Source: Eledone cirrhosa
Lineage: Eukaryota
Direction of reading: 5' to 3'
Assembly (NCBI GenBank): GCA_964016885.1
Contig: OZ024753.1
Location: 44,516,001-44,580,000 of the forward strand
Length of the DNA stretch: 64,000 nt
Shown: piece after piece, positions 82-58,603 of the stretch
Layout of the letters: the number at the start of each line of letters is the position of its first letter
Numbering within the stretch: position 1 is the first letter of the stretch
Position numbers and translations under genes: made by a program
The notes under the pieces: model-generated
Seen by the model: only the letters and a program-made list of their open reading frames with translations
The model's database searches: none
What the model was told of the DNA's origin: nothing

Positions 82-229
82 ATTATTTAACGATCGTTTC
101 TAGGATATATATGTGTTAGAATTGGCATGCATATTCAACAGATCTATGTACAAAATTATACAAAATTATACAAACTATCAAAATTAAATATACATACCAA
201 CACATATATATGCCGTCTTCAGAAATAAT
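82..229 (-). ncRNA. Type I hammerhead ribozyme motif with a very long helix II (family G)
   Basis: Minus strand reads ATTATTT-CTGAAGA-CGGC-ATATATATGTGTTGG...CTAACACATATATAT-CCTA-GAAA-CGATCG-TT-AAATAAT: 7-bp helix I, CUGAAGA and GAAA core, palindromic helix III, GUU cleavage triplet. The base of helix II is imperfect. The element is flanked by (TA)n. Confidence 0.75.
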
Positions 230-380
230 TTTTTTTAATATTTTATCTTGACTCTGTATTCCGTTTATCTTTCACCGAAAGTGATATTTCATTGCATCTC
301 TTCTTTCCATGATATCCGGATTACATTGAGTTCTTCATACGGATTGGACACTACCGTAAACTCTTGGTAGATTTATCTAC

Positions 381-418
<38 letters not shown>

Positions 419-518
419 ATGTATGTATGCTTGTGTATCTATGTGTGTATGTATGTATGTGGTGTATATATATATATATATATACACATATATATTTATA
501 CCTTTATTATATGTGCAT

Positions 519-700
519 ATAAAAATGACTTCTACAGGACTAGAACTGTTTCATTCATATGAAATCATATGAATGAAACAGCTCTAGACCTGTAGAAGTT
601 ATTTCTATATAATAATACAGATGTTATTTCTATATAATAATACCAATGTATTGAGTACCTTTATTAACTGTAGTTGTCCCCTGGCACAACTCGGTAACCT
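519..700 (+). mobile_element. PLE-type fold-back remnant (family D): 44-bp inverted arms plus tail, carrying a 3' half-hammerhead
   Basis: Arms 519-562 and 565-608 have 4 mismatches. Each arm carries GAAA-CAG-N8-CTG-TA. Homologous to 8330-8465, 32331-32465 and 58191-58315. Confidence 0.7.
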
Positions 701-788
701 ACACACATACACATATATATATGTTTATATATGTGATTTAAAACTGCACTATTCACAAGTGTATTTTAACCTTCATATCATGTCTTCC

Positions 789-859
789 TATTTTATCTGA
801 CGAAAACACAAATGTTATTGCATGATGATATTTGTTTTTGAAATGCGCATAATAAAATA
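789..859 (+). ncRNA. Type I hammerhead ribozyme motif (family B)
   Basis: TATTTTAT-CTGACGA-AAACACAAATGTTAT-TGCATG-ATGATATTTGTTTTT-GAAA-TGCGCA-TA-ATAAAATA: 8-bp helix I, about 14-bp helix II, palindromic helix III, AUA triplet. Lies in an element of about 735-895 between TA tracts. Confidence 0.88.
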
Positions 860-2139
860 CATGGAACTCTTTTAACCATCTTTTGATCTTATATATATGT
901 TTATATATATATATATATTTATATATATATCACCATCAGCAACATTTTTTTGTCCATTCTCTATATAACAAATGACATTTTCTTCCTTTTTTCACCTTAC
1001 TTCTTAACTCTACTTTGTTTCAAATCCTGTCAAGGTGAACTTTGCCTTTAATCCTTTTAAGGTCGATAAACAAGGAAGCTGTCCAATAATAGGAATTGGT
1101 TCTTTCCCGATTTCTCTTTCTCATTCTACCTCTTCTTTTTTTACCTCTTTCTGGAATAAATCAGATATTATCACTCCTGAAGAGAAATGAGTTTCACCAG
1201 GTTTAAATCTCCAAGACATAACGACATCCCTACAAATCAAGAAGAATTTCAGAATCCATTGGGTCCCTGCAATGCTGAGATAATCCTTACATTAATGTAC
1301 AGTCTAGTAGACATGAATATTTGGGGGCTACATACTCTGTTAAGGTATTCCTTCCATTAGTGTATGTTTGAGACAGTCAGCCTAGCAGACATGAATATTT
1401 GGGGACTACATATTCCCAAAGAAAGATTCATTTAAATGACAGACAATCAATTATTCAACAAACCTCTTAACTGCCTAATTTCATTTTCCATTTGGAATTT
1501 CTTCTGCTATGTCTTCTTCTGGGCAAGCTTTGAATGTCATGATGTCTAATTATCTCTCAATATTAATTTGAGGCTTTGCTTCTCTATAACAAATTACTTT
1601 ATCATTTGAAATGACAACAAAAAGCTCAGAGAAAAAAAAAACGCAATTGTTATAGTTGTTTTGTTTGTTTTAGTTGTTTTCTTTGCTTTAGTTATTTTGT
1701 TTGACTGGTTTAGCTATAAACAGCCAAGGCCATGGCAAAGCATTGACTTCTATGATTGTTTAAATGTTTCATTTTTCTGAAGTTTTTAGTCTTGGCACAT
1801 TGTTCGGGCGATTGCTTTCACAACCTGATAGCTGTTTTTACTGTTCATGTTTCTGTTGTTTTAGCCCTAAGTCATCAACCTTCGTTGAATAGCTACATGG
1901 TCAAAAGTATTCAAATTATAACTCAGATCATTTATTTAGTAAACTGGTTTGTTTAGTAAATGGGCATTTAGCTGTAAAAATTATTTCAAATAAAGAGCCG
2001 TAAACATTGGCAAATTCCCTATTAATGGTGTCACAATAAAATACACCCAGTACACTCTGTAAAATGGTTGCTGCAGAAATTATGTTAAACTAAGAACTGA
2101 TTGATCAATGCAACACCCTACTCATCAAATTAACAAGCA

Positions 2140-2380
2140 AGTAATTGAGCATTCCACAGACCCTTATGCAGTTCTCAATTCTCAGGGAGATTCAGTGTAA
2201 CACAGTGTGTGACAATGCTGGCACATTGAATTACGGGTACAACTCATTTTTACTAGCCATATGGACTGGAACAATGTGAAATAAAGTATCTTGCTCAAGG
2301 ACACACGGTACCTCCAGTAACCAAACAAATAACCATACAATCACAAAGAAAATACCTTAGCCATTAAACTACGTGCTTCC
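2140..2380 (-). mobile_element. Decayed tRNA-derived SINE with CORE-like domain
   Basis: Minus strand has GTGTCCTTGAGCAAGATACTTTATTTCACATTGTTCCAGTCCA, shared with 11688, 17143, 38994 and 55080. Confidence 0.6.
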
Positions 2381-2649
2381 AGAAACTGAAATATTCCACT
2401 TTTAAATCCTATATTTATTGCTTCACTTTCACAAAAGTTTATTTTTCTCCCAGTAAAATTGAAGAAAAATTGAAAACAAATGCAGCCGAGATAATCATAT
2501 GCTGCATATCTTTGATTCTTATTCCAAAATATTTTTCAATATCATTTTTTTTTTGTTTAACAACACAGAATTATATGACTAGTTCCTGTGTTGACATCTC
2601 TTGTGAGCTGTTTATTTCTTAATCATCATCATCATAATTTTCATCGTCC

Positions 2650-2682
<33 letters not shown>

Positions 2683-4559: not shown

Positions 4560-6676
4560 GGCTCTATACCTCATAGCTATGACTGTATATACACCAGTTA
4601 AGGCTCTCATGCTCTACATCATAGCTATGACTGTATATACACCAGTTAAGGCTCTCATGCTCTACATCATAGCTATGACTGTATATACACCAGTTAAGGC
4701 TCTCATGCTCTACATCATAGCTATGACTGTATATACACCAGTTAAGGCTCTCATGCTCTACATCATAGCTATGACTGTATATACACCAGTTAAGGCTCTC
4801 ATGCTCTACATCATAGCTATCACTATATATACACCAGTTAAGGCTCTCATGCTCTACATCATAGCTATGACTATATATACACCAGTTAAGGCTCTCATCT
4901 TTCTACCTCATAGCTATGACTATATATACACCAGTTAAGGCTCTCATCTTTCTACCTCATAGCTATGACTGTATATACACCAGTTAAGGCTCTCATCTTT
5001 CTACCTCATAGCTATGACTGTATATACACCAGTTAAGGCTCTCATCTTTCTACCTCATAGCTATGACTGTATATACACCAGTTAAGGCTCTCATCTTTTT
5101 ACCTCATAGCTATGACTATATATACACCAGTTAAGGCTCTCATGCTCTACCTCATAGCTATGACTATATATACACCAGTTAAGGCTCTCATGCTCTACCT
5201 CATAGCTATGACTATATATACACCAGTTAAGGCTCTCATGCTCTACATCATAGCTATGACTATATATACACCAGTTAAGGCTCTCATGCTCTACATCATA
5301 GCTATGACTATATATACACCAGTTAAGGCTCTCATCTTTCTACCTCATAGCTATGACTATATATACACCAGTTAAGGCTCTCATCTTTCTACCTCATAGC
5401 TATGACTATATATACACCAGTTAAGGCTCTCATCTTTCTACCTCATAGCTATGACTATATATACACCAGTTAAGGCTCTCATCTTTCTACCTCATAGCTA
5501 TGACTATATATACACCAGTTAAGGCTCTCATCTTTCTACCTCATAGCTATGACTGTATATACACCAGTTAAGGCTCTCATGCTCTACCTCATAGCTATCA
5601 CTATATATACACCAGTTAAGGCTCTCATGCTCTACATCATAGCTATGACTATATATTCACCAGTTAAGGCTCTCATGCTCTACATCATAGCTATGACTAT
5701 ATATTCACCAGTTAAGGCTCTCATGCTCTACCTCATAGCTATGACTATATATACACCAGTTAAGGCTCTCATGCTCTACATCATAGCTATGACTATATAT
5801 ACACCAGTTAAGGCTCTCATCTTTCTACCTCATAGCTATGACTATATATACACCAGTTAAGGCTCTCATCTTTCTACATCATAGCTATGACTATATATAC
5901 ACCAGTTAAGGCTCTCATCTTTCTACCTCATAGCTATGACTATATATTCACCAGTTAAGGCTCTCATGCTCTACATCATAGCTATGACTATATATTCACC
6001 AGTTAAGGCTCTCATGCTCTACATCATAGCTATGACTATATATACACCAGTTAAGGCTCTCATCTTTCTACCTCATAGCTATCACTATATATACACCAGT
6101 TAAGGCTCTCATGCTCTACATCATAGCTATGACTATATATACACCAGTTAAGGCTCTCATGCTCTACATCATAGCTATGACTATATATACACCAGTTAAG
6201 GCTCTCATCTTTCTACCTCATAGCTATGACTATATATTCACCAGTTAAGGCTCTCATGCTCTACATCATAGCTATGACTGTATATACACCAGTTAAGGCT
6301 CTCATCTTTCTACCTCATAGCTATGACTATATATTCACCAGTTAAGGCTCTCATGCTCTACATCATAGCTATGACTGTATATACACCAGTTAAGGCTCTT
6401 ATCTTTCTACCTCATAGCTATGACTGTATATACACCAGTTAAGGCTCTCATCTTTCTACCTCATAGCTATCACTATATATACACCAGTTAAGGCTCTCAT
6501 CTTTCTACCTCATAGCTATCACTATATATACACCAGTTAAGGCTCTCATGCTCTACATCATAGCTATGACTATATATTCACCAGTTAAGGCTCTCATGCT
6601 CTACATCATAGCTATGACTATATATTCACCAGTTAAGGCTCTCATGCTCTACATCATAGCTATGACTATATATACA
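4560..6676. repeat. 48/49-bp minisatellite, about 43-44 copies
   Basis: Unit CCAGTTAAGGCTCTCAT(GC/CTT)TCTAC(A/C)TCATAGCTATGACT(G/A)TATATACA with no spacers. Explains the 16-aa repeat ORFs. Confidence 0.97.
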
Positions 6677-7802
6677 GTGTTCAAGTCTCTCTTCCTCAGA
6701 AACAGCCCTGAGCTCCCCAAACATGAACAGCCCTGAGCTCCCCAACACTTAAATAGGGCCCTGAATATATCACAACTATCTAAACTCTTATGATGAAGAG
6801 AGACGAGAGCATTAAACAGTGTATATAGTTTATTCCTACAGATCTGTGTTTTGGCTTGGTTTCTATGGCTGGATGACCTTCCTAACACCAGCCACATTAC
6901 AGTGTGGTCTGGGTGCTTTTTATCATGACACCGAAATGACCACCTTACAGGGTGAATATATCTATCTATTTATACATATATATACACATACATGTATATG
7001 TATGTATATATATGTGTTTAAATATATGTATACTTTTCTATCTATACATATATATATATACACACACATACATACACTGTTTTCAAATAATTTCAACACA
7101 AAATTATCTCAAACATGGCAAGCTCCACAATTTAATGGAAATATTTCTAAAAGTTAGAGAATTCGAATATATTTTTTTATATTTTAAATTTTCATAGTTT
7201 ATAGATACGAAAATTGTAGAAATAAAATGACATTTCCGAACACATCTATTCTATTTTAACAGAATAAAAAAATAAATTCCCCTAAAAATGTTTGAATAAT
7301 ATATTTTCATTTATATTCTATTTATCATTTTATCATTTGCCTGTTTATGGGTGACATTTCTAATTTTTGTTTTTCTCTTTAATACAAACAAACCGTTCTC
7401 TCACTATTTGCCTCGGAATAAATTCCACTTTAGCCAAATTTTTGTAAAGCACTTTATTTCTTCACAAACAAATACAGCAAATGTAGCCTTACCCTCAAGT
7501 GTAATTATTATTAAATAGTTCTTTATGGAAATCAAAGTAAATGTTTTGTTTATTTCATTTTATTTTATTCTTATTTTTATTTTTATTTTATTTTATTTTT
7601 TTTTTTTTTTTTTTTACCAAATTAGTTGCCTCCATCACCTCATTTCAAATATTTGTAATTTCATGACAGAAATGGGAATAGTTCTTTAGAAAAAAGTATC
7701 TAAACATTAACCTAATGCGGTTTCTCCCATGTATTAGTCATTAGAGATTATGAAAGAGAGTTTTACAGGACTAACAAATATCCATTATATATATATATAT
7801 AT

Positions 7803-7924
7803 AGGAAAAGAATCAGGACCCCGATGGCTGAGCTCCAGCCTTTTCGACAGCTAGATCCTATTACCCACTCTACTACCCTCGAGTACTCTGGTGTGTTATG
7901 GTATCTTACCACATCTTCTTTGTT
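7803..7924 (+). mobile_element. PLE-type remnant family C (inverted arm plus tail, second arm deleted)
   Basis: GGAAAAGAATCAGGACCCCGATGGCTGAGCTC...GACAGCTAGAT joined directly to the family tail CCTATTACCCACTCTACTACCC...CTTTGTT. (TA)n on both sides. Confidence 0.75.
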
Positions 7925-8084
7925 ATATATATATATATTTTGAGTGTATGTTGGTTGTTTACCGACACCTCAGTATGCAGATTGGAGCACTCGACGAAGT
8001 ACGCAGGTTGGTTTGTTTACTCCGGAGTAATGTAAAATAAGTAAGTCAAACATGTAAAATTTGGCTTCGTTTATTATAAATTCT

Positions 8085-8137
8085 CTGCTATATATATTTT
8101 GGTGACAGCTATTATTGGCTGTGACCTCTTCAAGCAG
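8085..8137 (-). ncRNA. Degenerate type I hammerhead motif (family F)
   Basis: CTGC-TTGAAGA-GGTCACAGC-CAATAATA-GCTGTCACC-AAAA-TATATA-TA-GCAG. All three helices are present, but the core has C3>U and G12>A, so it is probably inactive. Confidence 0.65.
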
Positions 8138-8140
8138 TAC

Positions 8141-8209
8141 AAATTAATGTGGAAAAGACAGGTAAATTAATGTGGAAAAGACAGGTAAATTAATGTGGAA
8201 AAGACAGGT
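8141..8209. repeat. 23-bp tandem triplication
   Basis: AAATTAATGTGGAAAAGACAGGT x3. Confidence 0.9.
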
Positions 8210-8411
8210 TGTTGAAATATGTTCCACTCTGTCAATTCAACGATATGTCCAGCTCCTGGGTGTGTTGTTAGTCCTCTGAAGAACTGGAATCATATATATA
8301 TATATACATCTGTGTGTGTGTGTGTGAGACCCAGTTTCAATTGGGGTTAAACACAGTAGGTAACGTACTCAATACATTAGTAGAGTGTGAACATCATGTT
8401 TAATATAGAAG

Positions 8412-8465
8412 TGGCTTCTACAGGACTAGATCTGTTTCATTCAAAATAAATCATCAGTAAAGCCA
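8412..8465 (-). ncRNA. Type I hammerhead motif (family D, full core)
   Basis: TGGCTTT-A-CTGATGA-TTTATTTTGAAT-GAAA-CAG-ATCTAGTC-CTG-TA-GAAGCCA: 7-bp helix I offset by one extra A, weak helix II, GUA triplet. The family tail continues to about 8330. Confidence 0.65.
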
Positions 8466-8805
8466 ACTGTCCTTGTAAAATGGTTGTATTTATGTTTTCC
8501 AGAAAACATATGAGAACTAAAAGAGGAGAAAAGCTTGTCAGTTCTATACCATTATGCCCAGCTAGAATGAGAGACATAAGAAAGAGTAAAAACTATAGGA
8601 AGACACAGATAGATAAACATAAATACACCCACCACCACCACAACCAACACACACACACACATGTACACATGCCAAACATAATGCCACACACACAGACACA
8701 GATGCAAACACATGCACAGACAGGGAAGCATATGACAGAAAGACAAGATAGAGTAAACAAAATAAGTCCAGAAGAAGAGGAGGTGCAGAGGAAAACAAAT
8801 AATTA

Positions 8806-8950
8806 TTGAGAGGGTCATAGAATGTGTGATGAAAGAACTTTGAAAATTCCGTACGATAACAAACTAAATAATAATTAATAATAAAACTGAAGTTACAATC
8901 AAATAGATTGGGTATTTTTATTGGCAACATGACCATCCCTTAGTATAACA
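8806..8950 (+). mobile_element. PLE-type remnant family E with degenerate hammerhead core
   Basis: GGTCATAGAATGTGTGAT-GAAA-GAACTTTG and TTGGCAACATGACC...AGTATAACAATAT match the minus-strand copy at 11172-11490. Confidence 0.5.
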
Positions 8951-9038
8951 ATATATATATATATAAATGTATATATATATATATATAAATGTATATATAT
9001 ATATAAATGTATATATATATAAATGTATATATATATAA

Positions 9039-9110
<72 letters not shown>

Positions 9111-10265: not shown

Positions 10266-10443
10266 AGGAAAAAAGCTCAAGCCGTTTCGACGGGTATTTC
10301 TGGAGTCCAGAAATAGCCGTCGAAACGGCTTGAGCTCTGCCGTCGGGGGTCATAATCTTTCCTATTTCCCACTCTACTACCCTAAGAGTAGAGTACTCTG
10401 GTGCGTTATGGTCCATCTGGTTCCTTACCACAATTCCTTTGTT
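10266..10443 (+). mobile_element. PLE-type fold-back remnant family C
   Basis: Palindrome centred near 10305. GAAA-CGGC-TTGAGCTCT-GCCG-TC-GGGGGTC at 10322-10351, then the conserved tail. TA flanks. Confidence 0.8.
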
Positions 10444-10960: not shown

Positions 10961-11086
10961 GAAGGTGAGTAATAGTGTAGAACAATAAAACTATGCATAT
11001 ATCAGATAAGTAGCACTCAACTGCTGTTGTTTTCGAAATGCACATAATAAAATATATGGAACTTTTTTAACCATCTTTTAATTTCT

Positions 11087-11095
<9 letters not shown>
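10958..11095. mobile_element. Internally deleted family B remnant
   Basis: Reverse tail homologous to 32811-32880 joined to GAAATGCACATAATAAAATA...TTTTAACCATC (3' half of the family B hammerhead). Confidence 0.7.
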
Positions 11096-11171
<76 letters not shown>

Positions 11172-11174: not shown

Positions 11175-11490
11175 CGTGAATTTGTTTAGCAAGATTCTTT
11201 ATCTGAAAACGTGTGTTGAAACCCATATTGTTATACTTTGGTAGGGTCATGTTGCCAAAAAGAAACACACGCACCAGTTGCTTTCACTTCAATTTATTAT
11301 AATAAATTTATAAATTTAGGAATTTATAAATTTCCAGTTAGTTGGTTGGTTCCACAACCAGATGGTTGTTTATATATTGTCAAAGTTCTTTCGTCACACA
11401 TTCTGTGACCTCTTCAGTGACTGGGGATTCTTTTCTTTGTTTTTGTGCGTCTCCTTTGTTCTGTCCTACGCCATCTTGTTTTTGTGTGTG
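11172..11490 (-). mobile_element. PLE-type remnant family E with hammerhead core at 11389-11417
   Basis: Minus strand CTGAAGA-G-GTCACA-GAATG-TGTGAC-GAAA: 6-bp helix II with one extra G after A9. Helices I and III could not be reconstructed. Confidence 0.5.
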
Positions 11491-11687: not shown

Positions 11688-12135
11688 TCGCATGGCTTAG
11701 TGGTTAGAGCATTGGGCTTGCAATCGAAAGGTTGTGAGTTCAATCCTCGGATCAGGTGATGCGTTGTTTCCTTGAGCAAGTCACTTTGTTTCACATTGCT
11801 CCAGTTTACTCAACTGCAGAAATGAGATGATAGGACTGGGGTCCCTATCATTCCACTACAAAGTGGCCGTGGAGGTGCCACGGCAAAAAAAGCACCCAGC
11901 CCTCACTTTAAAGTGGACGTGTAGGCGCTACGGGGGAAAAAAAGCACCCAGCACTCACTGCACTCACTGTAAATGAGGTTGGATTTAGGAAGGGCATCCA
12001 GCTGTAGAAATCAAGCCAGAATCAGTTCCCGTATGAGCAAGACAAAGTCAGCCGACCGGACACTACCTATAACAGGGCAACCCATCTAACCCATGTTAGC
12101 GTGGAAGAACTGACATAAAACGGTGATGATGATGA
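11688..12135 (+). mobile_element. tRNA-derived SINE: A/B boxes, CORE-like domain, internal ~43-bp repeats, (GAT)n tail
   Basis: TGGCTTAGTGG (A box), GAGTTCAATCC (B box), TTCCTTGAGCAAGTCACTTT...CTCAACTG, AGGAAGGGCATCCAGCTGTAGAAA, AACCCATGTTAGCGTGGAA, GATGATGATG. Confidence 0.85.
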
Positions 12136-12145: not shown

Positions 12146-12361
12146 AGAAAAAGAGTCAGGACTCCGATGGCTGAGCTCTAGCCATTCCGATAGCTAAGTC
12201 TGAACTGAGGTCTGAACTGAGTTCAAATCTAGCTGTCGAAATGGTCGAAGCTCAGCCATTCAGGGTCCTGACTCTTTTCCTATTACCCACTCTACTACCC
12301 TAAGTATCGAGTACTCTGGTGCATTATGGTCCACCTGGTTCCTTACCACACAGCCTTTGTT
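12146..12361 (+). mobile_element. PLE-type fold-back remnant family C (diverged)
   Basis: GAAAAAGAGTCAGGAC... / ...GTCCTGACTCTTTTCC inverted arms plus conserved tail, in TA context. Confidence 0.8.
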
Positions 12362-13899: not shown

Positions 13900-14492
13900 A
13901 GAGAGAAAGAGTGAAGTTGGAAATAGCACAGAAAATATATTTAAGGGTCTGTTTTTCTTTTTTGATTCGTCCAAGTGACATTATTGAAATTGATAACATT
14001 ATTGAAAAAATGAAAGAGACAATTCTTTTTTAAAAAAATGTTTATAATGTATATTTTAAAAAGAATTGTCCCTCTAATTTTTTCAATAATGTTACCTTTT
14101 CAATAATTGTTTCTACTTTAGGCACAAGGCCAGCAATTACCCAGTGCATTACTGGTACTTTATTTTATCGACCCCGTAAGGATGAAAGGCAAAGTCAACC
14201 TCGGCGGTATTTGAACTCTGATCGTAAAGGGACGTAACTATGCTGGAAAGCATGGCGTCCGACCCTCTACCGATACTGCCAATCCACCGCCCTTTTCAAT
14301 AATTGTTTCTACTTTTGGCACAAGGCCAGCAATTACCCAGTGCATTACTGGTACTTTATTCTATCGACCCCGGAAGGATGAAAGGCAAAGTTAACCTCCC
14401 TTTTCAATAATGTCACTAGGACGAATCAAAAAAGAAAAACAGACCCTTAAATATATTTTCAGTGCTATTTCCAACTTCACCTTTTCTCTATA
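13900..14492. mobile_element. Fold-back element (about 85-bp outer arms, inner palindrome 13993-14097) interrupted by SINE insertions
   Basis: 13900-13990 is the reverse complement of 14402-14492. Confidence 0.75.
14102..14398 (-). mobile_element. Full-length tRNA SINE (Meta-like central domain, ATT tail) plus tandem 5'-truncated copy
   Basis: Reverse complement of GGTGGATTGGCAGTATCGG...GAGTTCAAAT...GACTTTGCCTTTCATCCTTACGGGGTCGATAAAATAAAGTACCAG...GTAGAAACAATTATT. CTTTTCAATAAT occurs at 14096, 14292 and 14400. Confidence 0.88.
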
Positions 14493-14532
14493 TCCACTGT
14501 TTTATATAGAACCTTACTATATATATATATAT

Positions 14533-14729
14533 AAAAGGAAAAAGTATGACCCTGACGGAAGAGCTCAAGCCGTTTCGACGGCTATTTCTGGACTCAGAAA
14601 TAGCCGTCGAAACGGCTTGAGCTCTGCCGTCGGGGTCATACTTTTTCCTTTTTCCCACTCTACTACCCTAAGTATTGAGTACTCTGGTGCGTTATGGCCC
14701 TTCTGGTTCCTTACCACAATTCCTTTGTT
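14533..14729 (+). mobile_element. PLE-type fold-back remnant family C (58-bp arms plus ~77-nt tail)
   Basis: Arms 14533-14590 and 14595-14652, spacer GACT. Half-hammerhead GAAA(14609)-CGGC-TTGAGCTCT-GCCG-TC-GGGGTC. Confidence 0.85.
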
Positions 14730-15202
14730 ATATATATATATATATATATATATGTATTCTCAGTGATTAAAAGTCTGAGAATTCGGCTTACAAACTTTGT
14801 AATTCTTTTTTTGCAAATCTAATTTTAAAGAAAATATGAAACAGTTTATTCTATTTGAATAATTAACTACTGATAGGTATTATATTCTCACAAATATCCA
14901 TCTTTTATTGCCTCTTGGTATCTCTGCTTGATCTGAGATTAAAGAACAACAACAACAACACCTAGATGTAACTGATTAGATAATCAGTCTAGATATGATG
15001 TGTTTCTCCCAGTTGTATCACTTCATCTACATCTGTTAAATGATACAGAATTACGTCAATACTTTACAATTCCTTCTTTTGAATTCAGTTACAAGGATTT
15101 ATATTAACAGTAAATCCTATAAACCTAATAATATTCTCCTGTAAATAGATTCTTACGTTGAAGGTAAGTTGATGTAAATATGTTGATATGGGTGTCGGTG
15201 CA

Positions 15203-15240: not shown

Positions 15241-15768
15241 TGTTATGTGTGTGTGTGTGTGTATTCACTGAGATGTGTAAAAGGATAAAAATATAAAGAT
15301 GGAAGGAAAGGTGCAAATTGTCACATCAGACTCAAGAAAACGTTTCCATGGGTTTTTATTAGTCATAACTCCTGGCAAAAGACAATTGACAAGAATAAGA
15401 AATAAAAGAAATATATATATGTGTGTGTATATCTGTGTGTGTGAATTTAGTATATCTAAAGATATACATTAAATATACGAAATTCACATGCATGTATGTA
15501 TACAGCTATGCTGAAGCTATATATATATATATAGATCTATCATAGATTGTAAACCTATCAACGTCTACCATCTCTCTAGCACACACACATAGTTGGACTA
15601 ATCCATATCTAGACTTCATTATCATATTTTACCCTCCCCTCTGTTTTACCTCAACAACTATGAAAAACCCCCCTATCTCTCTAGTCTTTGTCACATCCTC
15701 CTTCTTCTCTACTTCAACTTCACATGAATTCCTATAAAAACCTGAACATTCTGGTGCGGTAAACATAA

Positions 15769-15883
15769 TCTCTGATGATATGGGATCGATTGTGCATTGG
15801 ATATTGAATGCTCTACTAAATATATAATATTATAGATGTAGCGAGATCTAGGCAAATTGATGTCTATTGAAACGTACGTAAGA
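15769..15883 (+). ncRNA. Type I hammerhead motif with long helix II (family H)
   Basis: TCT-CTGATGA-TATGGGATCGATTGTGC...GCAAATTGATGTCTATT-GAAA-CGTACG-TA-AGA: palindromic helix III, GUA triplet, AATAAA 5 nt downstream, then (TA)n. Helix I is only 3 bp. Confidence 0.65.
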
Positions 15884-15992
15884 ACCGAATAAATCTCTTT
15901 TACTGCATCTTTCTGTTCTTTTTAATTCTTTATATATATATATATATATATAATGTATTAATAAATGGAAACTATATTTATAAAACCATAAT

Positions 15993-16057
15993 TATTTTAT
16001 TATATATATTTCAAGGGCAACCAAGCCAATCTTGGTGCACTTTCATCAGATAAAATA
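15993..16057 (-). ncRNA. Type I hammerhead ribozyme motif (family A)
   Basis: TATTTTAT-CTGATGA-AAGTGCACCAAG-ATTGG-CTTGGTTGCCCTT-GAAA-TATATA-TA-ATAAAATA. The outer inverted repeat TTTATAAAAC/GTTTTATAAA extends helix I. Confidence 0.85.
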
Positions 16058-16350
16058 CAAAATTTGTTTTATAAATAGTGACATAACTATGGAAAACAAC
16101 CTTGACGGTTGAAAATTCGCTGGATAGTCATATTGAATTTTAACTCCAGCATCTGTTGAGTGCTCTATATCAGTTATAAACTTTTAAGTTTGTTGGAATC
16201 CCAACAAATTAAATATAACTTCTACATATATATATATATATATTAGTGTCCGAAACGTTAAGACCCTCTTCCTGCTATATCAAGCGTTAACCTAATATAT
16301 CCCTTCAATTTACTGCACCGATTGTGTTGTTATTTCTGTTTACCTTATAC

Positions 16351-16914: not shown

Positions 16915-16916
<2 letters not shown>

Positions 16917-17093
16917 CAAAGACAGTGTGGTAAGAAACCAGGTGGACCATAATGCACCAGAATACTTGATACTTAGGGTAGTAGAGTAGGAAATAGGAAA
17001 AGAGTCAGGACCCCGGCGGCTGAGATCTGGCCGTTTCGGATCTAGCTGTCGAAACGGCCAGAGCTCAACTGTCGGGGTCCTGACTCTTTTCCT
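16915..17093 (-). mobile_element. PLE-type fold-back remnant family C
   Basis: Reverse tail, then TAGGAAAAGAGTCAGGACCCC... / ...GGGGTCCTGACTCTTTTCCTA. TA flanks. Confidence 0.82.
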
Positions 17094-17142: not shown

Positions 17143-17485
17143 GCACATGGCTTAGTGGTTAGAGCATTGGCCTTGCAATCGAAAGGTTGTGAGTTCAATT
17201 CTCAGACCGGGTGATGTGTTGTTTCCTTGAGCAAGACACTTTATTTCACATTGCTCCAGTTTACTCAGCTGTAGAAATGAGATGATAGGGACTGGGTTCC
17301 CTATCATTCCACTGCAAAGTGGTCGTGGAGGTGCCACGGCAAAAAAGCACCCAGCACTCACTGTAAATGAGGTTGGTGTTAGGAAGGGCATCCAGCTGTA
17401 GAAATCAAGCCAGAATCAGTTCCCGTCCCACCCTTGCAAGCAGGGAAAAGCAGACGTAAAATGAAATGATGATGATGATGATGAT
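17143..17485 (+). mobile_element. tRNA/CORE-like SINE with (GAT)n tail
   Basis: Same family as 11688-12135, with a shorter 3' part. Confidence 0.85.
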
Positions 17486-17675: not shown

Positions 17676-17716
17676 ATGATATTAATAAATGGAAACTATA
17701 TTTATAAAACCATATT

Positions 17717-17779
17717 TATTTTATTATATATATATTTCAAGGGTACCAAAACTTTGGTATGCCCTCATCAGATAAAATA
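17717..17779 (-). ncRNA. Type I hammerhead ribozyme motif (family A, second copy)
   Basis: TATTTTAT-CTGATGA-GGGCATACCAA-AGTT-TTGGTACCCTT-GAAA-TATATATA-TA-ATAAAATA. Confidence 0.8.
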
Positions 17780-17843
17780 CAAAATTTGTTTTATAAATGG
17801 TGACTTACCCAAGAAACCAGACCTTATCGGTTCAGGTTCAGTT

Positions 17844-17898
<55 letters not shown>

Positions 17899-18744
17899 CG
17901 TAAAATAAGAAAATTTTTTTAAAAAATTAAAAAAAAAATTAACTTACTTACTTAAATTTTCACTCCAACTAATTAGTTTCTGCAATGGGATAAAGACAAT
18001 TACGTAATGAACTGTTGAGAATTTCATTGCGTCATCAGGGAGGTCATTCTCAGCCAAGTCTCCAGGCAATTTTACGTCTTTTATATTATTGTTCTGCATT
18101 CTCCTGCATTGAACCACCTAGGTACTATGACATAACCTGTGTATTTGCTGGCATTAGCGTACATCTGTGCGCTTATGTTAGTAGATATATTAAATTATCT
18201 ATATATATATATATATATAAACATACATACATATAAATAGGTTGTTGCACCTTTAAATTAAAATTGAACTTGACCGATTTGTTGCTAATATGTATTATGC
18301 ACCTACTGAAATAAACATTACCAACTATGCTTCATGAAGAGATTAGCAAACTGTCTTTATTTTTTTTTTTTTTGTCCCTTTTTTTTGTCCCCTTTTCTTC
18401 AGTATTATTTTTTTTGATTTTTATAAGACAGTGTGTTGAAAATTTAATTAATTCTAAAACATTACAACTGACCCTGCTGTACTGGCTTTCAGAGATAATT
18501 TTTCAGTTTGGGATTAGTTAATTTCCATTCACTAATGTGTAAGGAAAGCTTGCTAAATGCCACTTTCTAATCTCTTTGGCGGCGGAACACATCTTTCAAT
18601 GTGATAGATATTTTTTTACAGACATTATTATTATTATTATTATTATTATTGTTACTTTTTTATTATTGCTATCATTATTAATATTATTATTATTGTTGTT
18701 ATTATTATTTTCTTTTTCCTCTCTCTCTCACTCACTCTCTCTCT

Positions 18745-32140: not shown

Positions 32141-32330
32141 ATAGATATATATATATCAGTGAATTGGCAGTATCGGTAGAGGGTTGGGCGCAATTGCTTT
32201 CTAGCATACTTATGTCCCTTTAAGGTCCGAGTTCAAATCCCGGCGAGGCTAACTTTACCTTTCATCCTTACGGGGTCGATAAAATAAAGTACCAGTACAA
32301 GAGTAGAAACAATATATATATATTATTATT

Positions 32331-32464
32331 ATAGAAATGATTTCTACAAGACTAGCACTGTTTCTTTCATCAGGAAAGTGTTTTCTATTTCAAAATAAAT
32401 ATACCTACATTTTGAGTATCTTCTGTAACTGTGGTCACCTCACAGTGTACATCAGGAATCCACC

Positions 32465-32544: not shown

Positions 32545-32656
32545 CTTGAAGGCAGCCACCTGGACTAGCAACTGCCTTCTCGTCTTGGGCATCTCTCTCT
32601 GCTTTTCAGCCCCTTGGATTGTGTCTATTATATTCCTTTGTTGGATAAATTTTGGA

Positions 32657-32714
32657 ATACCTGATGATGTCACCGGGTTGATACTGAACCCTGTCATTGA
32701 AATGTTCATAGTAT
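32657..32714 (+). ncRNA. Type I hammerhead motif (family I)
   Basis: ATAC-CTGATGA-TGTCACCGGGTT-GATACTG-AACCCTGTCATT-GAAA-TGTTCA-TA-GTAT, then a ~45-nt tail into (TA)n. Confidence 0.7.
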
Positions 32715-32758
32715 GATAAACCTTTAAGGAATTACACCAATCCAGTCTCCTGTTATTT

Positions 32759-32811
<53 letters not shown>

Positions 32812-32937
32812 GTAGGAGGTGAGTTTTATTGTAGTACAATAAAGCAATGCAGATATTGGATAAGTAGCACTCTACAGTTTGTAGGACTGGAGTATAAATA
32901 ATATATAAGATCAAAAGATGGTTAAAAGAGTTCCATG

Positions 32938-33008
32938 TATTTTATTATGTGCATTTCAAAAACAAATATCATCATGCGATGACATTTGCGTTTTCGTCAG
33001 ATAAAATA
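32938..33008 (-). ncRNA. Type I hammerhead motif (family B, left arm)
   Basis: Reverse complement of 33071-33141, except helix III reads TGCACA. Confidence 0.85.
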
Positions 33009-33070
33009 GGGAGACATGATATGAAGGTTAAAAAACACTTGTGTTTTTTAACCTTCATATCATGTCTCCC

Positions 33071-33141
33071 TATTTTATCTGACGAAAACGCAAATGTCAT
33101 CGCATGATGATATTTGTTTTTGAAATGCGCATAATAAAATA
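33071..33141 (+). ncRNA. Type I hammerhead motif (family B, right arm)
   Basis: TATTTTAT-CTGACGA-AAACGCAAATGTCAT-CGCATG-ATGATATTTGTTTTT-GAAA-TGCGCA-TA-ATAAAATA. Confidence 0.9.
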
Positions 33142-33169
33142 CATGGAACTCTTTTAACCATCTTTTGAT

Positions 33170-33215
<46 letters not shown>

Positions 33216-42714: not shown

Positions 42715-42928
42715 AGGGTAGTGGATTAGCAGAATCGGTGGAGCAGGAGTCAACATGGTCTGTGTCATAAAGTTAAGGTCCTTTACATCGAGTTCAAATC
42801 CTGTGGAGGTTAGCTTTGCCTTTCATCCTTAATGGTTTGGTAAAATAAAGTACCAGTAACAAACTGGAGTTGATTTAATCGACTTTTTCCTCCCCCAAAC
42901 TTTCTGGCCTTGTGCCTATATAAGAAAC

Positions 42929-42974
<46 letters not shown>

Positions 42975-43205
42975 ATTCTATGAAGGTGGTGGATTGGCAG
43001 AATCGGTAGATCAACAGACAACATGCTCTGTGTTGTAAGGTTAAGGTCCTTTACATTGATTTCAAATCCCGCTAAGGTTAGCTTTGCCTTTCATCCTTAC
43101 AGCGTTGATAAAATAAAGTACCAGTAATACATTGGGGTAGATTTAATCGACTTTCCCCTCCCTGAAAATTGCTGGCCTTGTGCCTAAATCTGAAACCATT
43201 ATTGT
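42715..43205 (+). mobile_element. Two tandem Meta-like SINEs (longer subfamily) separated by an (ATT)n tail
   Basis: Both have GGATTGGCAGAATCGG...TTTGCCTTTCATCCTTA...TAAAATAAAGTACCAG...GATTTAATCGAC...GGCCTTGTGCCTA. Confidence 0.82.
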
Positions 43206-43438
43206 TATAAACTGTATAAATAAATATAGTTGTTGTTGTCTGCCAGTTTCTGTTGCAGAAATACAGCTTATCATCGGTGCAGCTAATGTTGTGTCTACTC
43301 TGGCACTACTAAATCATTTACTAAGAGAAATATCAAAATCTGCAACTTTGTATTTTCCTGCATGCTATTGTTTAGGAGACAGTAGGAGTGTTTTAGGATT
43401 CTTTATAATGTATTTACCAGAATCAACAATGTAAGTTT

Positions 43439-45088
43439 TGCCACCACTATCACTACCACCACTACCACTATCACCACCAACAACACAACTACTACCAATA
43501 CTACCACCACTACCACTATCACCACCAACAACAGAACTACTACCAATACTACCATCACTACCACTATCACCACCAACAACAGAACTACTACCAATACTAC
43601 CACCACTACCACTATCACCACCAACAACACAACTACTACCAATACTACCACCACTACCACTATCACCACCAATACTACCATCACTACCACTATCACCACC
43701 AACAACACAACTACTACCAATACTACCACCACTACCACTATCACCACCAACAACACAACTACTACCAATACTACCACTATCACCACCAACAACACAACTA
43801 CTACCAATACTACCATCACTACCACCATCACCACCAACAACACAACTACTACCAATACTACCATCACTACCACTATCACCACCAATACTACCATCACTAC
43901 CACCATCACCACCAACAACACAACTACTACCAATACTACCATCACTACCACTATCACCACCAATACTACCACCACTACCACCATCACCACCAACAACACA
44001 ACTACTACCAATACTACCATCACTACCACTATCACCACCAATACTACCATCACTACCACCATCACCACCAACAACACAACTACTACCAATACTACCATCA
44101 CTACCACTATCACCACCAATACTACCACCACTACCACCATCACCACCAACAACACAACTACTACCAATACTACCATCACTACCACTATCACCACCAATAC
44201 TACCATCACTACCACTATCACCACCAACAACACAACTACTACCAATACTACCATCACTACCACCATCACCACCAACAACACAACTACTACCACCACTACC
44301 ACTATCACCACCAACAACACAACTACTACCAATACTACCACCACCACCACCAACAACACAACTACTACCACCACTACCACTATCACCACCAACAACACAA
44401 CTACTACCACCACTACCACTACCACCAACAACACAACTACTACCACCACTATCAGTATCACTACCAACAACACAACTACTACTACCAATACTACCACCAC
44501 CCACAACTACTATCACTATCACCACTACCACTATCACTACTAACACCACAACTACTACCAATACTACCACCACTACCACTACCAACAACACAACTACTAC
44601 CACCACCACTATCACTACCAACACCACAACTACTACCAATACTACCACCACTATCACCACCAACACCACAACTACTACTAATTCTATCACCAATAATACT
44701 AGCACCACCACTACCACAACCATCACCAACACCACCACCACCACTTCCACCAATACTAGCAAGACAAATAACACTAACATCATCACCACCACTACTACCA
44801 GCAACAACACTCAATACCACCACCATCACCACCAACAACAACACTATCACCATCACCACCACTACCAAAACCACAACCACCACCACTGTGTCACCCACAA
44901 CCACCACCACAGCATCACCCATAGCACTACAAACCACACTCACCACCATTACCACCACCACCAAAACCACAACCACCACCGCTGTGTCACCCACACCACC
45001 ACCGCTGTGTCACCCACACCACCACCACCGCTGTGTCACCCACACCACTGCAAACTGCACTCACCACCACCACTATCACCACACTACC

Positions 45089-45123
<35 letters not shown>
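43439..45123. repeat. 1.7-kb ACC/ACT/ACA triplet-derived array with higher-order units
   Basis: Recurring TCACCACCAACAACACAACTACTACCAATACTACCA block; almost no G on the + strand; open in several frames on both strands. Confidence 0.93.
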
Positions 45124-46204
45124 CCAAAGGAATAATTAGATTATTATATATAACAATAATTATGATCAATATAATTTATATCAATGGTTGATTTAGAAAT
45201 TAAATTGTTTTGAGGTTGAAAAATAATAATTCTTTGTTGCTTTCTCAGTAAAAGGAGAAACACACAAACCCATAAATACTCCCCCACACACATAGACACC
45301 TCTACACACTTCCACACACACACCTCCACACGCACACACACACTCACCTCCACACACACCTCCACTTCTGTAATTTCCAAGACATATGGTGAGGGGGGGG
45401 GGGGTGAAACAGATTGGCCAAACCTAACATAAAAATGGATGCTATTCTTATATTGGATCATGATAGGTTAAAATCTTATTGTAAAGATTATTTAGGATCA
45501 ATAGAAATGGGAAAAATATTCAATATTTCAGGTCTAACCATTTCTGCTGCACAGATAGAAAAAGGTATAAGGTTACTGGAATGATAGCAGATCTCGAAAT
45601 TTCTATTGAATTCTAAGAATAGAGGATAGATTTGCTGCCTGGGTCAGTATACCTGTTGGACTGGTTTTATTTATTGTATATAAATATCAGTTTTCGATGT
45701 TTCACCTTTCAAGATTTCATTGCTGCAAGGCTAACAATATATATCTTCCATAGACAATGGTATTGAATATTGAATTTTTACAACAGTTAAAACGTAGAAG
45801 GATTTTCATTAACTAAATGCAATAAATACGTATATCCATTTCTTAAAGTCATAAAGTTGAAATGAAATAATTTGATTTGCATAATATTTGAAATATAATG
45901 CAATCCTCCTCAACATCATCATCACTTTTACACCCATGTTTCCACAATTCCATGAGTTGGATGGGTTCGTTGCAGCACAAAATCTCTTCACTTGCCATGT
46001 TCCTTCATCTTCTCCTTTGTGAGTCTCAACGATTTGAGATCAGCTTTCACCAGCTCTGCCCAGTTCTTCCTTGGTCTATATAACATGATAATAATTATAG
46101 ATGAATCTCCCCAATCTCAGAGAGCCTGCAAGGGCTTTGGGCACACTTCCCTCCTCCATTACAAATCATTAGGCAAATAATAATTATATTACCATATTTC
46201 AAAG

Positions 46205-46490
46205 GAGATGCCCAGTTCACACTGTAAAGTGGTCCTGTAGGTGACATGACAAAAAGCACCCAACCTACACTATAAAGTTGTCGTGCAAGTGATATGACAA
46301 AAAGCACCCATTTCACACAGTAAATGTGGTTAGCATTAGGAAGGGCATCCAGCCATAGATACCAAGCCCAAATCAGTTCTGTATGAACAAGACACGGTCA
46401 TCTGATCTGGCTTGTCTTACAGGGACAACTTATCTAACCCATGCTAGCATGGAAAAAATGGATTTTAAATGGTGATAATGATGATGATTG
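46205..46490 (+). mobile_element. 5'-truncated (GAT)n-tailed SINE
   Basis: Internal repeats, AGGAAGGGCATCCAGCCATAG, AACCCATGCTAGCATGGAAAA and GAT tail. Confidence 0.8.
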
Positions 46491-47070: not shown

Positions 47071-47477
47071 TGTGAGTTGGGGTGGCTGGACCTGACGGAT
47101 GGTGACCCACTCGAGGAGGGAACCTTGTGATGTGAGTTGGGGTGGCTGGACCTGACAGATGGTGACCCACTAGAGGAGGGAACCTTGTGAGTTGGGGTGG
47201 CTGGACCTGACAGATGGTGACCCACTTGAGGAGGGAACCTTGTGAGTTGGGTTGGCTGGACCTGACAGATGGTGACCCACTAGAGGAGGGAACCTTGTGA
47301 GTTGGGTTGGCTGGACCTGACAGATGGTGACCCACTAGAGGAGGGAACCTTGTGAGTTGGGTTGGCTGGACCTGACAGATGGTGACCCACTAGAGGAGGG
47401 AACCTTGTGAGTTGGGTTGGCTGAACCTGACAGATGGTGACCCACTTGAGGAGGGAACCTTGTGAGTTGGGTTGGCT
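47071..47477. repeat. 55-bp GC-rich minisatellite, 7 units plus a partial unit
   Basis: TGTGAGTTGGG(G/T)TGGCTGGACCTGACAGATGGTGACCCACTAGAGGAGGGAACCT. Confidence 0.95.
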
Positions 47478-49369: not shown

Positions 49370-49536
49370 GGAGGGTCGGACGCCATGCTTTCCAGCATAG
49401 TTACGTCCCTTTACGATCTGAGTTCAAATCCCGCCGATGTTGACTTTGCCTTTCATCCTTACGGGGTCGATAAAATAAAGTACCAGTAATGCACTGGGTA
49501 AGTGCTGGCCTTGTGCCTAAAGTAGAAACAATTATT
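49370..49536 (+). mobile_element. Young 5'-truncated Meta-like SINE with 14-bp target site duplication
   Basis: ATTATTAGTTGATT at 49356-49369 and 49531-49544. Confidence 0.9.
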
Positions 49537-52536: not shown

Positions 52537-52920
52537 CATCATCATCGTTTAATGTCCATTTTACATGCTAGTATGGTTTATATGGGTTGTCCTATTAGAG
52601 GCAAGTTAGGTCAGGTGACCATGTCTTGCTCATATAGGAGTGTTTCTGGCAAGATTTCTATGGCTGGATGCCCTTCCTAACATCAACCACATTGACAGTG
52701 TTGGCTGGGTGCTTTTTGTCGTGACACCTACATGACTACTTTACAGTGTTGACTGGGTGCTTTTTGTCATGACACCTACATGACCACTTTACAGTGTTGG
52801 CTGGGTGCTTTTTGTCATGACACCTACATCACCACTTTACAGTGTTGGCTGGGTGATTTTTATTGTGACACCTACACAACCACTTTAGAGTGTGGGCTGG
52901 GTGCTTTTTGTGACACCAAC
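52537..52920 (-). mobile_element. (GAT)n-tailed SINE 3' part with ~5 internal repeats
   Basis: Reverse match to 20085-20672. Confidence 0.8.
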
Positions 52921-57005: not shown

Positions 57006-57225
57006 CCCTTTAGCATTTACATTACTCTATATATACTATTGTATTTTTGTGGTAAATGCTTTAACTCACATAATATCTCACATAATATTGAATCTATGGA
57101 ATTTTGATATTATTAATTTTGAGAACAATACCTTAACATTAGTATGAGTGACCGGTTATGGCCAGTCCAAACAGAAAAAGGTGAGAGAATTCTGGCCGGA
57201 TATGGCCAATTTAAATGCTAAAGGG
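57006..57225. mobile_element. piggyBac-type MITE
   Basis: CCCTTTAGCATTTA ... TAAATGCTAAAGGG with degenerate TTAA flanks (CTAA, ATAA). Confidence 0.8.
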
Positions 57226-57579
57226 ATAAGGGAGTTGCTTCTTATAACTTTATATTTACTTTATTATATTATGATACAAACATTTTAAAGCCAGTTTCCT
57301 TGTTGAAACATCACTTCTCCATTTTGCCCTATCCTTTGCACCCCCACCCCCCTTCATCCCCCCCCCCCTTCACCCACCCCTGGCTTTCATTTCCTCCTCA
57401 ATCTTCTTTAACCACGACTTTCTGGTTCTTTTCATTTCTCGATTTCCTTCCACATTTATTTCCATCACTCTTCTCACCCAATCACATTCACCCTTTCTTG
57501 ACACATGACCCAATAATCTCATTCTTTTTCTTTTCACATCAACTTCTGTTATCCATCATCGTCTGCAATTCATTGTTTG

Positions 57580-57910
57580 TCCTCATCTCCCTCCTCTCTC
57601 TTTCTCTTTCTCTCTCTCTCGCTTTCTCTCCCCCTCTCTCTACCTCTGTCCCTCCTCTCACCCTCCCCTCTCTCTCTCTCTCCCTCCTCTCTCCCTTTCC
57701 TCCTCTCTCTCCCTCCTCTCTCTCTCTCTTTCCTCCTCTCCCCCCTCTCTCTCCCTCTCTCTCCCCCCTCTCCCTCTCCCTATATATCCCCCCTCTCCTC
57801 TCCCCCTCTCCTCTCCTCTCTCCCTCCCCTCTCTCTCATCCCTCTCTCTCCTCTCTCCTTCCCTCTATCTCTTTCTCCCCCCCCCCTCTTTCTCCCTCTC
57901 TTTTTCCTCC
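57580..57910. repeat. Polypyrimidine (CT/CCT) tract
   Basis: Direct reading. Confidence 0.9.
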
Positions 57911-58190
57911 TCATACTCTGAACCATTCTCATATCTGTCCTTGTCAGTTTCTCTCATGTTCCCCTTTCAGTATCCACATCTCACTCATAAAATGTACCGG
58001 CAACATTTATCACACACTAGAGAGTTTGCCATGTATCTTGCAAGACTAAGAAGCACTCAATACTCTACATTATCAGTGTTCATTTAAGACATGTGATTAA
58101 CAAGTTAAATAGAAGAAAGAACAAATACAAAAAAAAAGGATGAGTGGGTGAAAGGAATGGGAGAAACAGAAGGATTGGAGTGCCAGAGGT

Positions 58191-58312
58191 TGATTTCTCC
58201 CGAATGAAACAGTTCTAGTCCTGTAGAAACCTTTCTATAATAAATATGTATACTCTGCTTTGTATTGAGTACCTTGCTTACTGTGGTTACCCCCGATTGA
58301 ACCTGGGATAAA

Positions 58313-58315
<3 letters not shown>
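58191..58315 (+). mobile_element. Family D remnant, 5'-truncated inside the hammerhead core
   Basis: TGA-TTTC-TCCC-GAAT-GAAA-CAG-TTCTAGTC-CTG-TA-GAAACC, then family tail (TGTATTGAGTACCTT) into (TA)n. Confidence 0.72.
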
Positions 58316-58395
<80 letters not shown>

Positions 58396-58397
<2 letters not shown>

Positions 58398-58598
58398 CAA
58401 AGGAAATGTGGTAAGGGACCAGGTGGACCATAACGCACCAAAGTACTCAATACTTAGGGTAGTAGAGTGGGTAATAGGAACGAGTAGGACCCCGACGGCT
58501 GAGCTCAAGCCGTTTCGACGACTAATTCTGGACGGAATTAGCCGTCCAGAATTAGCCGTCAAAACGGCTTGAGCTCAGCCGTCGGGGTCCTACTCGTT

Positions 58599-58603
<5 letters not shown>
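58396..58603 (-). mobile_element. PLE-type fold-back remnant family C (62-bp arms plus ~78-nt tail)
   Basis: Arms 58474-58535 and 58542-58603; tail 58396-58473; long (TA)n on both sides. Confidence 0.85.

Follow-up and report, generated by a model that had tools for sequence, protein, structure and literature searches.

Hammerhead motifs at the probable 3' ends of Penelope-like elements in (TA)n tracts of the Eledone cirrhosa genome

Penelope-like elements (PLEs) of the Hydra clade that carry hammerhead motifs and prefer (TA)n targets have been published, including Hydra-1_Obim of Octopus bimaculoides (PMC8557442), and dispersed motifs and opposite-strand pairs stemming from truncated PLEs were described in 2014 (PMC4209133). 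Here we analyse a stretch of 64 kb from the 3.0-Gb assembly of Eledone cirrhosa (GCA_964016885.1, contig OZ024753.1, positions 44,516,001 to 44,580,000), hereafter the window, in which type I hammerhead motifs of many kinds lie in or beside TA microsatellites. These motifs are very probably the hammerhead 3' ends of at least seven coding PLE families (six with Hydra motifs and one with a Neptune/Nematis-type endonuclease) and of three non-coding families, presumably brought into (TA)n tracts by twin-primed insertion and mostly truncated at the 5' side.

The elements resemble the Hydra clade (PMC8557442) in having one open reading frame (ORF) for reverse transcriptase (RT) and endonuclease with RW(K/R), DKT, CxCx5C, CxxC and CxH and without CCHH, as well as in the type I hammerhead of the terminal repeat, the (TA)n insertion, the inverted 5'-truncated copies and the optional tail; the likeness to Hydra-1_Obim was judged by eye from an excerpt of the published supplement. 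They differ in number, since the octopus Hydra family commented on there is a single one of about four copies, whereas six families occur in one 64-kb window here, with tens of thousands of copies. All 26 Hydra hammerhead rows in File S2 of the same paper have C3-G8 and small helices, in contrast to U3-A8 or C3/A8 in our family C, a helix II of up to 115 nt, and tails of 70-130 nt instead of 30-40. With the minimal type I hammerheads of metazoans (PMC4209133) the motifs share the palindromic helix III, the extra base between positions 9 and 10.1, the predominance of single dispersed motifs, the opposite-strand pairs 100-700 bp apart and the U3-A8 swap, published for Schistosoma mansoni; the counts in that paper reach at most 9,000 per genome, against some 200,000 estimated here.

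A closely comparable system is PAc, a Poseidon element of the green anole (PMC11167929), for which two internal RT starts define the tail and both strands of an AT-rich target are cut and extended; its hammerhead cleavage is protein-assisted and was not needed for insertion in vitro. PAc belongs to a different clade, its target is an ATT motif rather than (TA)n, and the sections consulted describe no rule for short and long ends in pairs. Three of our families (D, F and I) resemble the metazoan non-LTR retrozymes, which are non-coding, carry a type I hammerhead and are thought to be mobilised by PLEs (PMC7229834; 10.64898/2026.07.22.740005), although the published ones form tandem arrays with circular RNAs and those described here are dispersed, truncated and TA-flanked. 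Family E2 is like Neptune/Nematis (PMC8557442) in its C-terminal GIY-YIG domain, its CX4CxxC linker and a hammerhead 3' of the endonuclease. A curated octopus repeat annotation of 2026 lists 31 recently active Penelope-like families, and its main text never uses the words 'hammerhead', 'ribozyme' or 'Hydra'; the literature that we searched held no paper on hammerheads in octopus. The kind of element is thus already known (Hydra PLE, hammerheads, (TA)n); the scale, the short/long rule, the common hairpin and the C3/A8 subfamily did not turn up in the literature that we searched.

Hammerhead motifs in the window and genome-wide

The window has about 32% G+C and is rich in microsatellites. All ten complete hammerheads that a sequence-only reading had listed were recovered at their positions and on their strands (four forward, six reverse; Table 1), together with two complete motifs absent from that list, those of families I and E2. 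The core (CUGANGA...GAAA...UH) of the type I hammerhead is intact in eight of the ten listed motifs and in ten of the twelve complete ones. The two damaged cores are those of 8085-8137 (U3 opposite G8, G12 absent) and 8412-8465 (first pair of helix I gone), and both of their families have intact motifs in other copies. Helix I of 15769-15883 measures only 3 bp, as in most copies of its family, and that of 789-859 8 bp, with a palindromic 8-mer as helix III. In place of the 6-nt palindromic helix III ascribed to most complete motifs, 8412-8465 has a 4-bp helix III with an 8-nt loop.

A strict descriptor matched five times in the window and at most once in each of 200 local dinucleotide shuffles; with a palindromic helix III as a further requirement the numbers were four and zero. 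A relaxed descriptor matched nine times, against once in the reversed window, and one of the nine (21964-22040) is probably due to chance. By family anchors the window holds 27 3' halves, of which 12 lie inside complete motifs and 15 are lone or deleted; this count leaves out two further family C halves that were seen separately, and at least 15 take the place of the dozen or so 3' halves first reported. Downstream of the motif (TA)4 is reached after 30-207 nt in 11 of the 12 complete copies, 8412-8465 being the one that meets (CA)4 first. The tails had been described as short, but not all of them are, and they run up to about 200 nt.

When the window was scanned with Rfam 15, none of the 138 matches up to E=10 was to a hammerhead family. 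The microRNA matches in the same scan were rejected as TA/CA repeats and fold-backs.

The scale was estimated from a random sample of sixty 10-kb regions (600 kb, two of them overlapping by about 1.5 kb) from ten contigs that make up 2.1 of the 3.0 Gb. The relaxed descriptor gave 41 matches in this sample against 1, 3 and 2 in three controls, and a stricter one gave 15 matches with C3-G8, 6 with U3-A8 and 4 further matches, against 0-1 in shuffles. Within 230 nt downstream, 35 of the 41 motifs have (TA)4 or (CA)4; as background, 22% of positions reach (TA)4 within 200 nt. These figures translate into an estimate of about 200,000 complete folds in the genome, with a span of roughly 130,000-270,000 once counting error and clustering are allowed for, the density of the window (eight credible relaxed matches in 64 kb) being about twice that of the sample. 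A 15-mer common to the A- and B-type ends has 54,815 exact matches in the genome and its reversed control 276, and for family C 42,297 exact matches to the 3' half compare with 2,287 to the 5' core, an excess that 5' truncation predicts. Outside the window we saw another eight or more hammerhead families (L173, L176, L179, L186, L192, L194, L198, L203, L213), of which three have U3-A8 cores.

Published counts are about 9,000 in Xenopus tropicalis, 4,000 in the coelacanth and about 2,000 plus 1,300 in Schistosoma mansoni (PMC4209133), more than 6,000 for a coral, some 5,000 for a mussel and 126,247 for the axolotl (PMC7229834), and 235 Rfam hammerhead matches in the giant squid. The estimate for E. 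cirrhosa exceeds every one of the published counts that we found, that of the axolotl being the largest, and no match for this scale turned up in the literature searched, on which the supplements of PMC4209133, PMC7229834, PMC11167929 and PMC13282606 and of a bioRxiv preprint may bear. The very large and mostly unannotated ribozyme population that had been forecast is borne out in the estimated number of motifs; that they act as ribozymes is a prediction, and most of them are lone truncated ends whose single motif per strand could not pair as a dimer in cis.

Coding sequence upstream of the families

BLAST places the motifs in ten families (A to I and E2, with family C present in the window as halves only), where about eight had been proposed; that there are several families holds, the count does not. 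When the families were extended in the 5' direction genome-wide, RT and/or GIY-YIG coding sequence was found upstream in seven of the ten, in agreement with the proposal that they are 3' ends of PLEs or non-autonomous derivatives in TA repeats; three families remain without it. The window itself has no match to PLE coding sequence anywhere along its 64 kb, and Hydra-like coding matches occur in 13 of the 60 random regions.

The most complete case is family A, where in locus L045 a hammerhead, a 5' untranslated region, an uninterrupted frame of 808 aa, a 3' untranslated region, a second hammerhead, the tail and TA follow one another, the hammerheads at 9745 and 6036 flanking the frame. The 808-aa protein has RLRW, DKT, YRDD, CxCx5C, YFGST, CxxC and CxH and lacks CCHH; because these motifs match the Hydra features given in section 11 of PMC8557442, family A is taken as Hydra-type. 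Its predicted model has a mean pLDDT (predicted local distance difference test) of 80.9, and the five best hits of a fold search against PDB are telomerase RTs (top 3du5, E 7e-9). Family E has an uninterrupted Hydra-type frame of 894 aa with RWK and DKT in L342. YRDD is present in both of these frames, and families B, C, G and H are represented by broken or partial ones: a broken ORF between two hammerheads in L039 (B), coding copies 35-36% identical to A in L137 and L348 (C), an ORF flanked by direct hammerhead repeats in L340 (G), and Hydra-type RT and endonuclease fragments upstream of the hammerhead in L203 (H). The RW/DKT variants are RWI and DKT in A, RWR and DKT in B and C, and RWK and DKT in E. 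The CxCX5C linker occurs in A, B, C, E and G, and in one H copy a frameshift or substitution breaks it. In the translations the C-terminal GIY-YIG motifs go without CCHH and with CxxC and CxH around a conserved E and N.

The terminal hammerheads are direct repeats in L045 (A), L039 (B) and L340 (G), with hammerhead-to-hammerhead units of 3.7, 3.7 and 3.1 kb, and have an inverted plus direct arrangement in L137 (C), L342 (E) and L203 (H). At 5566-6030 of L203 a family H copy shows an internal triplication of 230 nt that repeats the 5' half of the hammerhead. A protein search returned 34 relatives, nearly all without names, and in the homologue P0004 Pfam reports GIY-YIG at E 0.012 only.

Family E2 has a GIY-YIG endonuclease upstream in other copies, with a CX4CxxC linker followed by YIGET, and reaches 23.9 bits with PF01541 (cut-off 22.6). 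By endonuclease and linker it appears to be Neptune/Nematis-type, the recovered region lying entirely 3' of the RT core. In L034 (1007-3492, -), beside family A copies, other PLE-type frames with DKS and YVDD resemble the region upstream of E2, and they could supply the missing RT for its clade.

Families D, F and I look non-autonomous on the sequence recovered. Family D is about 620 nt long with a common 5' start in the six long copies compared. Family F has about 1.8 kb of upstream sequence common to three loci, and in one copy two hammerheads lie 2.19 kb apart with no PLE ORF between them. In family I the tail continues head-to-tail into the body of the same element, the unit repeating about every 540 nt. 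As for tandem units that each have a complete hammerhead, F offers the one locus with two hammerheads, I a continuity over about 1.3 units, and D nothing of the kind.

3' ends, core variants and insertion

The 3' end in every family is fixed at one of two places, either near an internal TA-rich site (short end) or 70-130 nt beyond the first (long end). In back-to-back pairs of family A one copy had the short and the other the long end in 20 of 20 cases, at 18 different spacings, and the same holds for 75 of the 77 classifiable pairs of family C (five more could not be classified), for 14 of 21 in D, 5 of 6 in E, 4 of 5 in E2, 2 of 2 in F and 3 of 7 in B. Unpaired copies are mixed (A, 23 short and 11 long; C, 38 short and 33 long). 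Twenty-eight family C fold-backs of the same spacing (L047-L076 and 14518-14730 in the window) represent either a recurrent joining hot spot or a fold-back of 200 nt amplified as a unit. Among 28 family A copies examined, six are unpaired, truncated and have TA at the 5' junction as well, and the others are inverted pairs or extend further 5'. Different families nest within one another's TA tracts. The short/long pattern likely records the insertion process; no paper on such a rule for back-to-back PLE copies was found in the literature searched, on which the supplements named above may bear.

Between the two ends a hairpin of the form ACUC-stem...stem-UN-GAGU occurs in families A, B, C, D, E, F, G and H and in one further family, in F in other genomic copies; its inner stems differ between families and stay complementary. 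Little shared flanking sequence had been reported, which must be corrected in that the tails do share this motif. The hairpin was not found in I, E2 and five other families compared from the random sample, some of these being short-end copies. A loose hairpin descriptor, taken alone, is weakly above chance, with 8 matches in the window (0-7 in 50 shuffles) and 42 in the 600-kb sample (18-30 in controls). The hairpin may be an RT signal, and the searched literature held no tail hairpin common to PLE families.

We propose the following course of insertion, extending what was measured for the green anole PLE (PMC11167929). The GIY-YIG endonuclease would cut both strands of a (TA)n tract, and the RT would begin its cDNA 3' of the hammerhead at one of two fixed internal sites; where it stopped early, stubs of 100-300 nt would be left. 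If the two cut ends both served as primers on one RNA, each at a different one of these sites, the cDNAs could join at their truncated ends and yield a back-to-back pair. Pile-ups would arise because each insertion brings new flanking TA tracts that serve as targets for later ones. The three non-coding families likely borrow PLE enzymes.

Self-cleavage of the motifs is a prediction. Among 84 distinct A/B-type copies, 62 have a perfect palindrome as helix III and another 18 a helix III that is self-complementary through G-U pairs (80 of 84); helix III is predicted to pair between molecules and not within a lone one, which fits the dimer model of PMC4209133. Since lone stubs and back-to-back pairs alike carry no more than a single motif on a strand, most copies are predicted to be inactive in cis. 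The hammerheads would work in full-length tandem transcripts, either as dimers via the self-complementary helix III or with help of a PLE protein, and the lone stubs are likely inert passengers.

The core of family C is U3-A8. Two candidate structures found no support in this family. For a monomer-active ribozyme with a 6-bp helix III, folding predicts a competing structure that is not a hammerhead and gives helix III a probability of 0.23-0.28 for two U3 copies and of 0.10 for two C3 copies. For the fold-back centre as ribozyme helix II, the predicted 5' core pattern has no match in the genome; the real 5' half of family C was found in L017. Of the first 100 among the 2,287 core matches all have A8, 63 with U3 and 37 with C3, and the C3/A8 form has 1,168 exact 16-mer matches, and 883 when its own helix II letters are included. 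In a midpoint-rooted tree of 82 copies (not a random sample, support values not considered) the CUGAGAA copies cluster with short branches among U3-A8 lineages, except for three U3 or other copies inside the group and one C3 copy outside, and near-complete ORFs occur in C3/A8 copies (L137, L351). Cleavage by the anole ribozyme is abolished when C3G or G8C breaks the 3-8 pair (PMC11167929). The C3/A8 lineage would either have spread with an impaired ribozyme or have a core one base shorter in which G7 acts as G8. The searched literature held no activity measurement for a C3/A8 core and no C3/A8 coding subfamily, core variants being a subject on which the supplements of the cited papers may bear.

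A wider proposal, which we put forward as a possibility and with some doubt, is that both cut ends of (TA)n prime on one RNA at two fixed sites flanking an ACUC/GAGU hairpin that the Hydra RT recognises, and that this happened hundreds of thousands of times. Non-coding parasites would copy the hairpin for movement in trans, and ribozyme cleavage would be dispensable, as a coding subfamily with more than 1,100 core-bearing copies spread after the 3-8 pair broke, unless the C3/A8 core is a new working register without N7.

Three other explanations were considered. That the motifs are chance matches in AT-rich repetitive DNA has next to no probability: the lack of Rfam matches, the mostly weak monomer scores and single matches such as 21964-22040 speak for it, and it is refuted by the shuffle, sample and 15-mer controls, besides a core that is kept while helices vary among ten families. 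It is improbable, too, that the mini-elements are mainly non-LTR retrozymes, i.e. short non-coding units that are processed by the hammerhead to small circular RNAs and spread by themselves. The head-to-tail arrangement of family I without an ORF, the fixed 5' end of D and the double hammerhead of F would suit such units, which are published (PMC7229834; 10.64898/2026.07.22.740005), but seven of the ten families continue upstream into PLE coding sequence with ragged 5' ends, and neither D nor I showed two or more full short units in an array. We consider it quite improbable that the elements make the TA tracts themselves, by slippage from a TA-rich end during cDNA synthesis, and that the pairs are cDNA fold-backs instead of twin priming at a pre-existing microsatellite. 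The short end of several families does coincide with a TA-rich site inside the element, and the self-complementary helix II contains or adjoins many of the junctions. Fold-back of one cDNA, however, predicts equal or ragged ends and not the fixed short and long ends of all 20 family A pairs, and it is further opposed by the TA on the truncated side of the six unpaired A copies, by the nesting of families in each other's tracts and by the (TA)n preference listed for 26 of 27 Hydra families (PMC8557442).

Insertion of PLE 3' ends into TA tracts by twin priming thus remains our preferred explanation, against which several points weigh. The units of 3.1-3.7 kb exceed the 'generally <3 kb' of the Hydra clade, which is a tendency and not a strict criterion, and the assignment of A, B, C, E, G and H to this clade is suggested by motifs. 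In the Hydra-type ORFs found here Pfam recognises no RT and no GIY-YIG domain, and a PDB sequence search with such an ORF gave nothing. No PLE ORF was found for D in 11 extended loci plus 20 others, for F in 25 loci with one tandem copy among them, or for I in fewer than ten loci, few of these copies being long. Of the ten motifs folded as monomers, nine are not unusually stable (minimum free energy z-scores of +0.1 to -2.2), and the exception is 82-229 at -5.8. In the small samples (B, D, E and E2) the pair rule holds less well, with crude end classes in B and D, and 28 of the 85 family C pairs have a single spacing, which was chosen by the query, and may not be independent. That TA was there before the insertion is something we infer.

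Window features and wider meaning

The hammerhead-related features of the window and the copies of a dispersed repeat are collected in Table 1.

Table 1. Hammerhead-bearing 3' ends and dispersed repeat copies in the 64-kb window
Positions	Strand	Feature	Details
19..380	both	Family H back-to-back pair	hammerhead 82-229 (-), helix II of 115 nt, helix III a palindrome, short end at TA tract 1-18; on + a long tail with hairpin (251-331) that ends at TA tract 381
517..661		Family D fold-back, two 3' halves	530-556 (-), 571-597 (+)
730..903	+	Family A truncated 3' end	hammerhead 789-859; short end; TA on both sides
7786..7924	-	Family C 3' half with inverted tail	3' half 7819-7848
7991..8145	-	Family E 3' end	damaged hammerhead 8085-8137; long tail
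8321..8510	-	Family D 3' part	hammerhead 8412-8465; tail hairpin 8367-8386
8813..8954	+	Degenerate E2-type 3' half	
10270..10442	both	Family C fold-back, two 3' halves	long end on +
11027..11099	+	Family A-type 3' half	short end
11201..11430	-	Family E2 3' end	complete hammerhead 11379-11421
12150..12360		Pair of degenerate family C 3' halves	tail hairpin 12289-12312
14518..14730		Family C fold-back	short end on -, long end on +
15602..15931	+	Family G 3' end	hammerhead 15769-15883: helix I of 3 bp, helix II long, helix III a palindrome
15953..16225		Family B 3' end	short end with hammerhead 15993-16057 (-); on + a long tail and its hairpin 16143-16161
16916..17092		Family C fold-back	long end on -, short end on +
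17680..17832	-	Family B-type 3' end	complete hammerhead 17717-17779
17894..18208		Family I	hammerhead 17963-18042 (-), short end; inverted long tail 18069-18208
32330..32385	-	Family D copy	helix II deleted
32545..32762	+	Family F 3' end	hammerhead 32657-32714; short end
32819..33178		Family A back-to-back pair	32938-33008 (-) long end; 33071-33141 (+) short end; TA outside both
58191..58307	+	Family D 3' half	long tail
58397..58600		Family C fold-back	long end on -, short end on +; tail letters of the C3/A8 subfamily; cut before the core
14103-14292, 20724-20888, 29271-29435, 32180-32344, 34894-35058, 42775-43148, 49371-49535, 63028-63402		Dispersed repeat copies	

The dispersed repeat is 165-190 nt long, has copies up to 98% identical on both strands and adjoins TA tracts, without a hammerhead; it resembles the head of a tRNA-related short interspersed element (SINE). 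Three tRNA-like Rfam matches in a repeat (11693-11750, 17148-17205, 24751-24808) score 26-28 bits, just below the gathering score, and ARAGORN found no tRNA gene in the window. A 45-bp minisatellite at 34605-34912 (6.8 copies, 98% alike) derives from the 5' end of the dispersed 165-190 nt repeat. Other tandem repeats are a 48/49-bp minisatellite at 4567-6676 (44 copies, 95% alike, higher-order period 437-485 bp), and 48-bp units of a common dispersed repeat in three places together with a 55-bp minisatellite (20075-20519, 46219-46310, 52686-52911, 47071-47477). A low-complexity ACC/ACT array at 43386-45139, with several open frames including a threonine-rich one of 385 aa (+), is either a microsatellite expansion or a mucin-like exon.

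The mode of PLE integration and the role of the hammerhead are both open questions (PMC8557442, PMC11167929). In E. cirrhosa young intact elements (the 808-aa and 894-aa frames), a simple target, two fixed starts and a natural core mutant occur together, which makes both questions directly testable. As Rfam misses these motifs and the main text of the octopus annotation is silent on them, many of the short stubs may be filed as SINEs or as unknown repeats.

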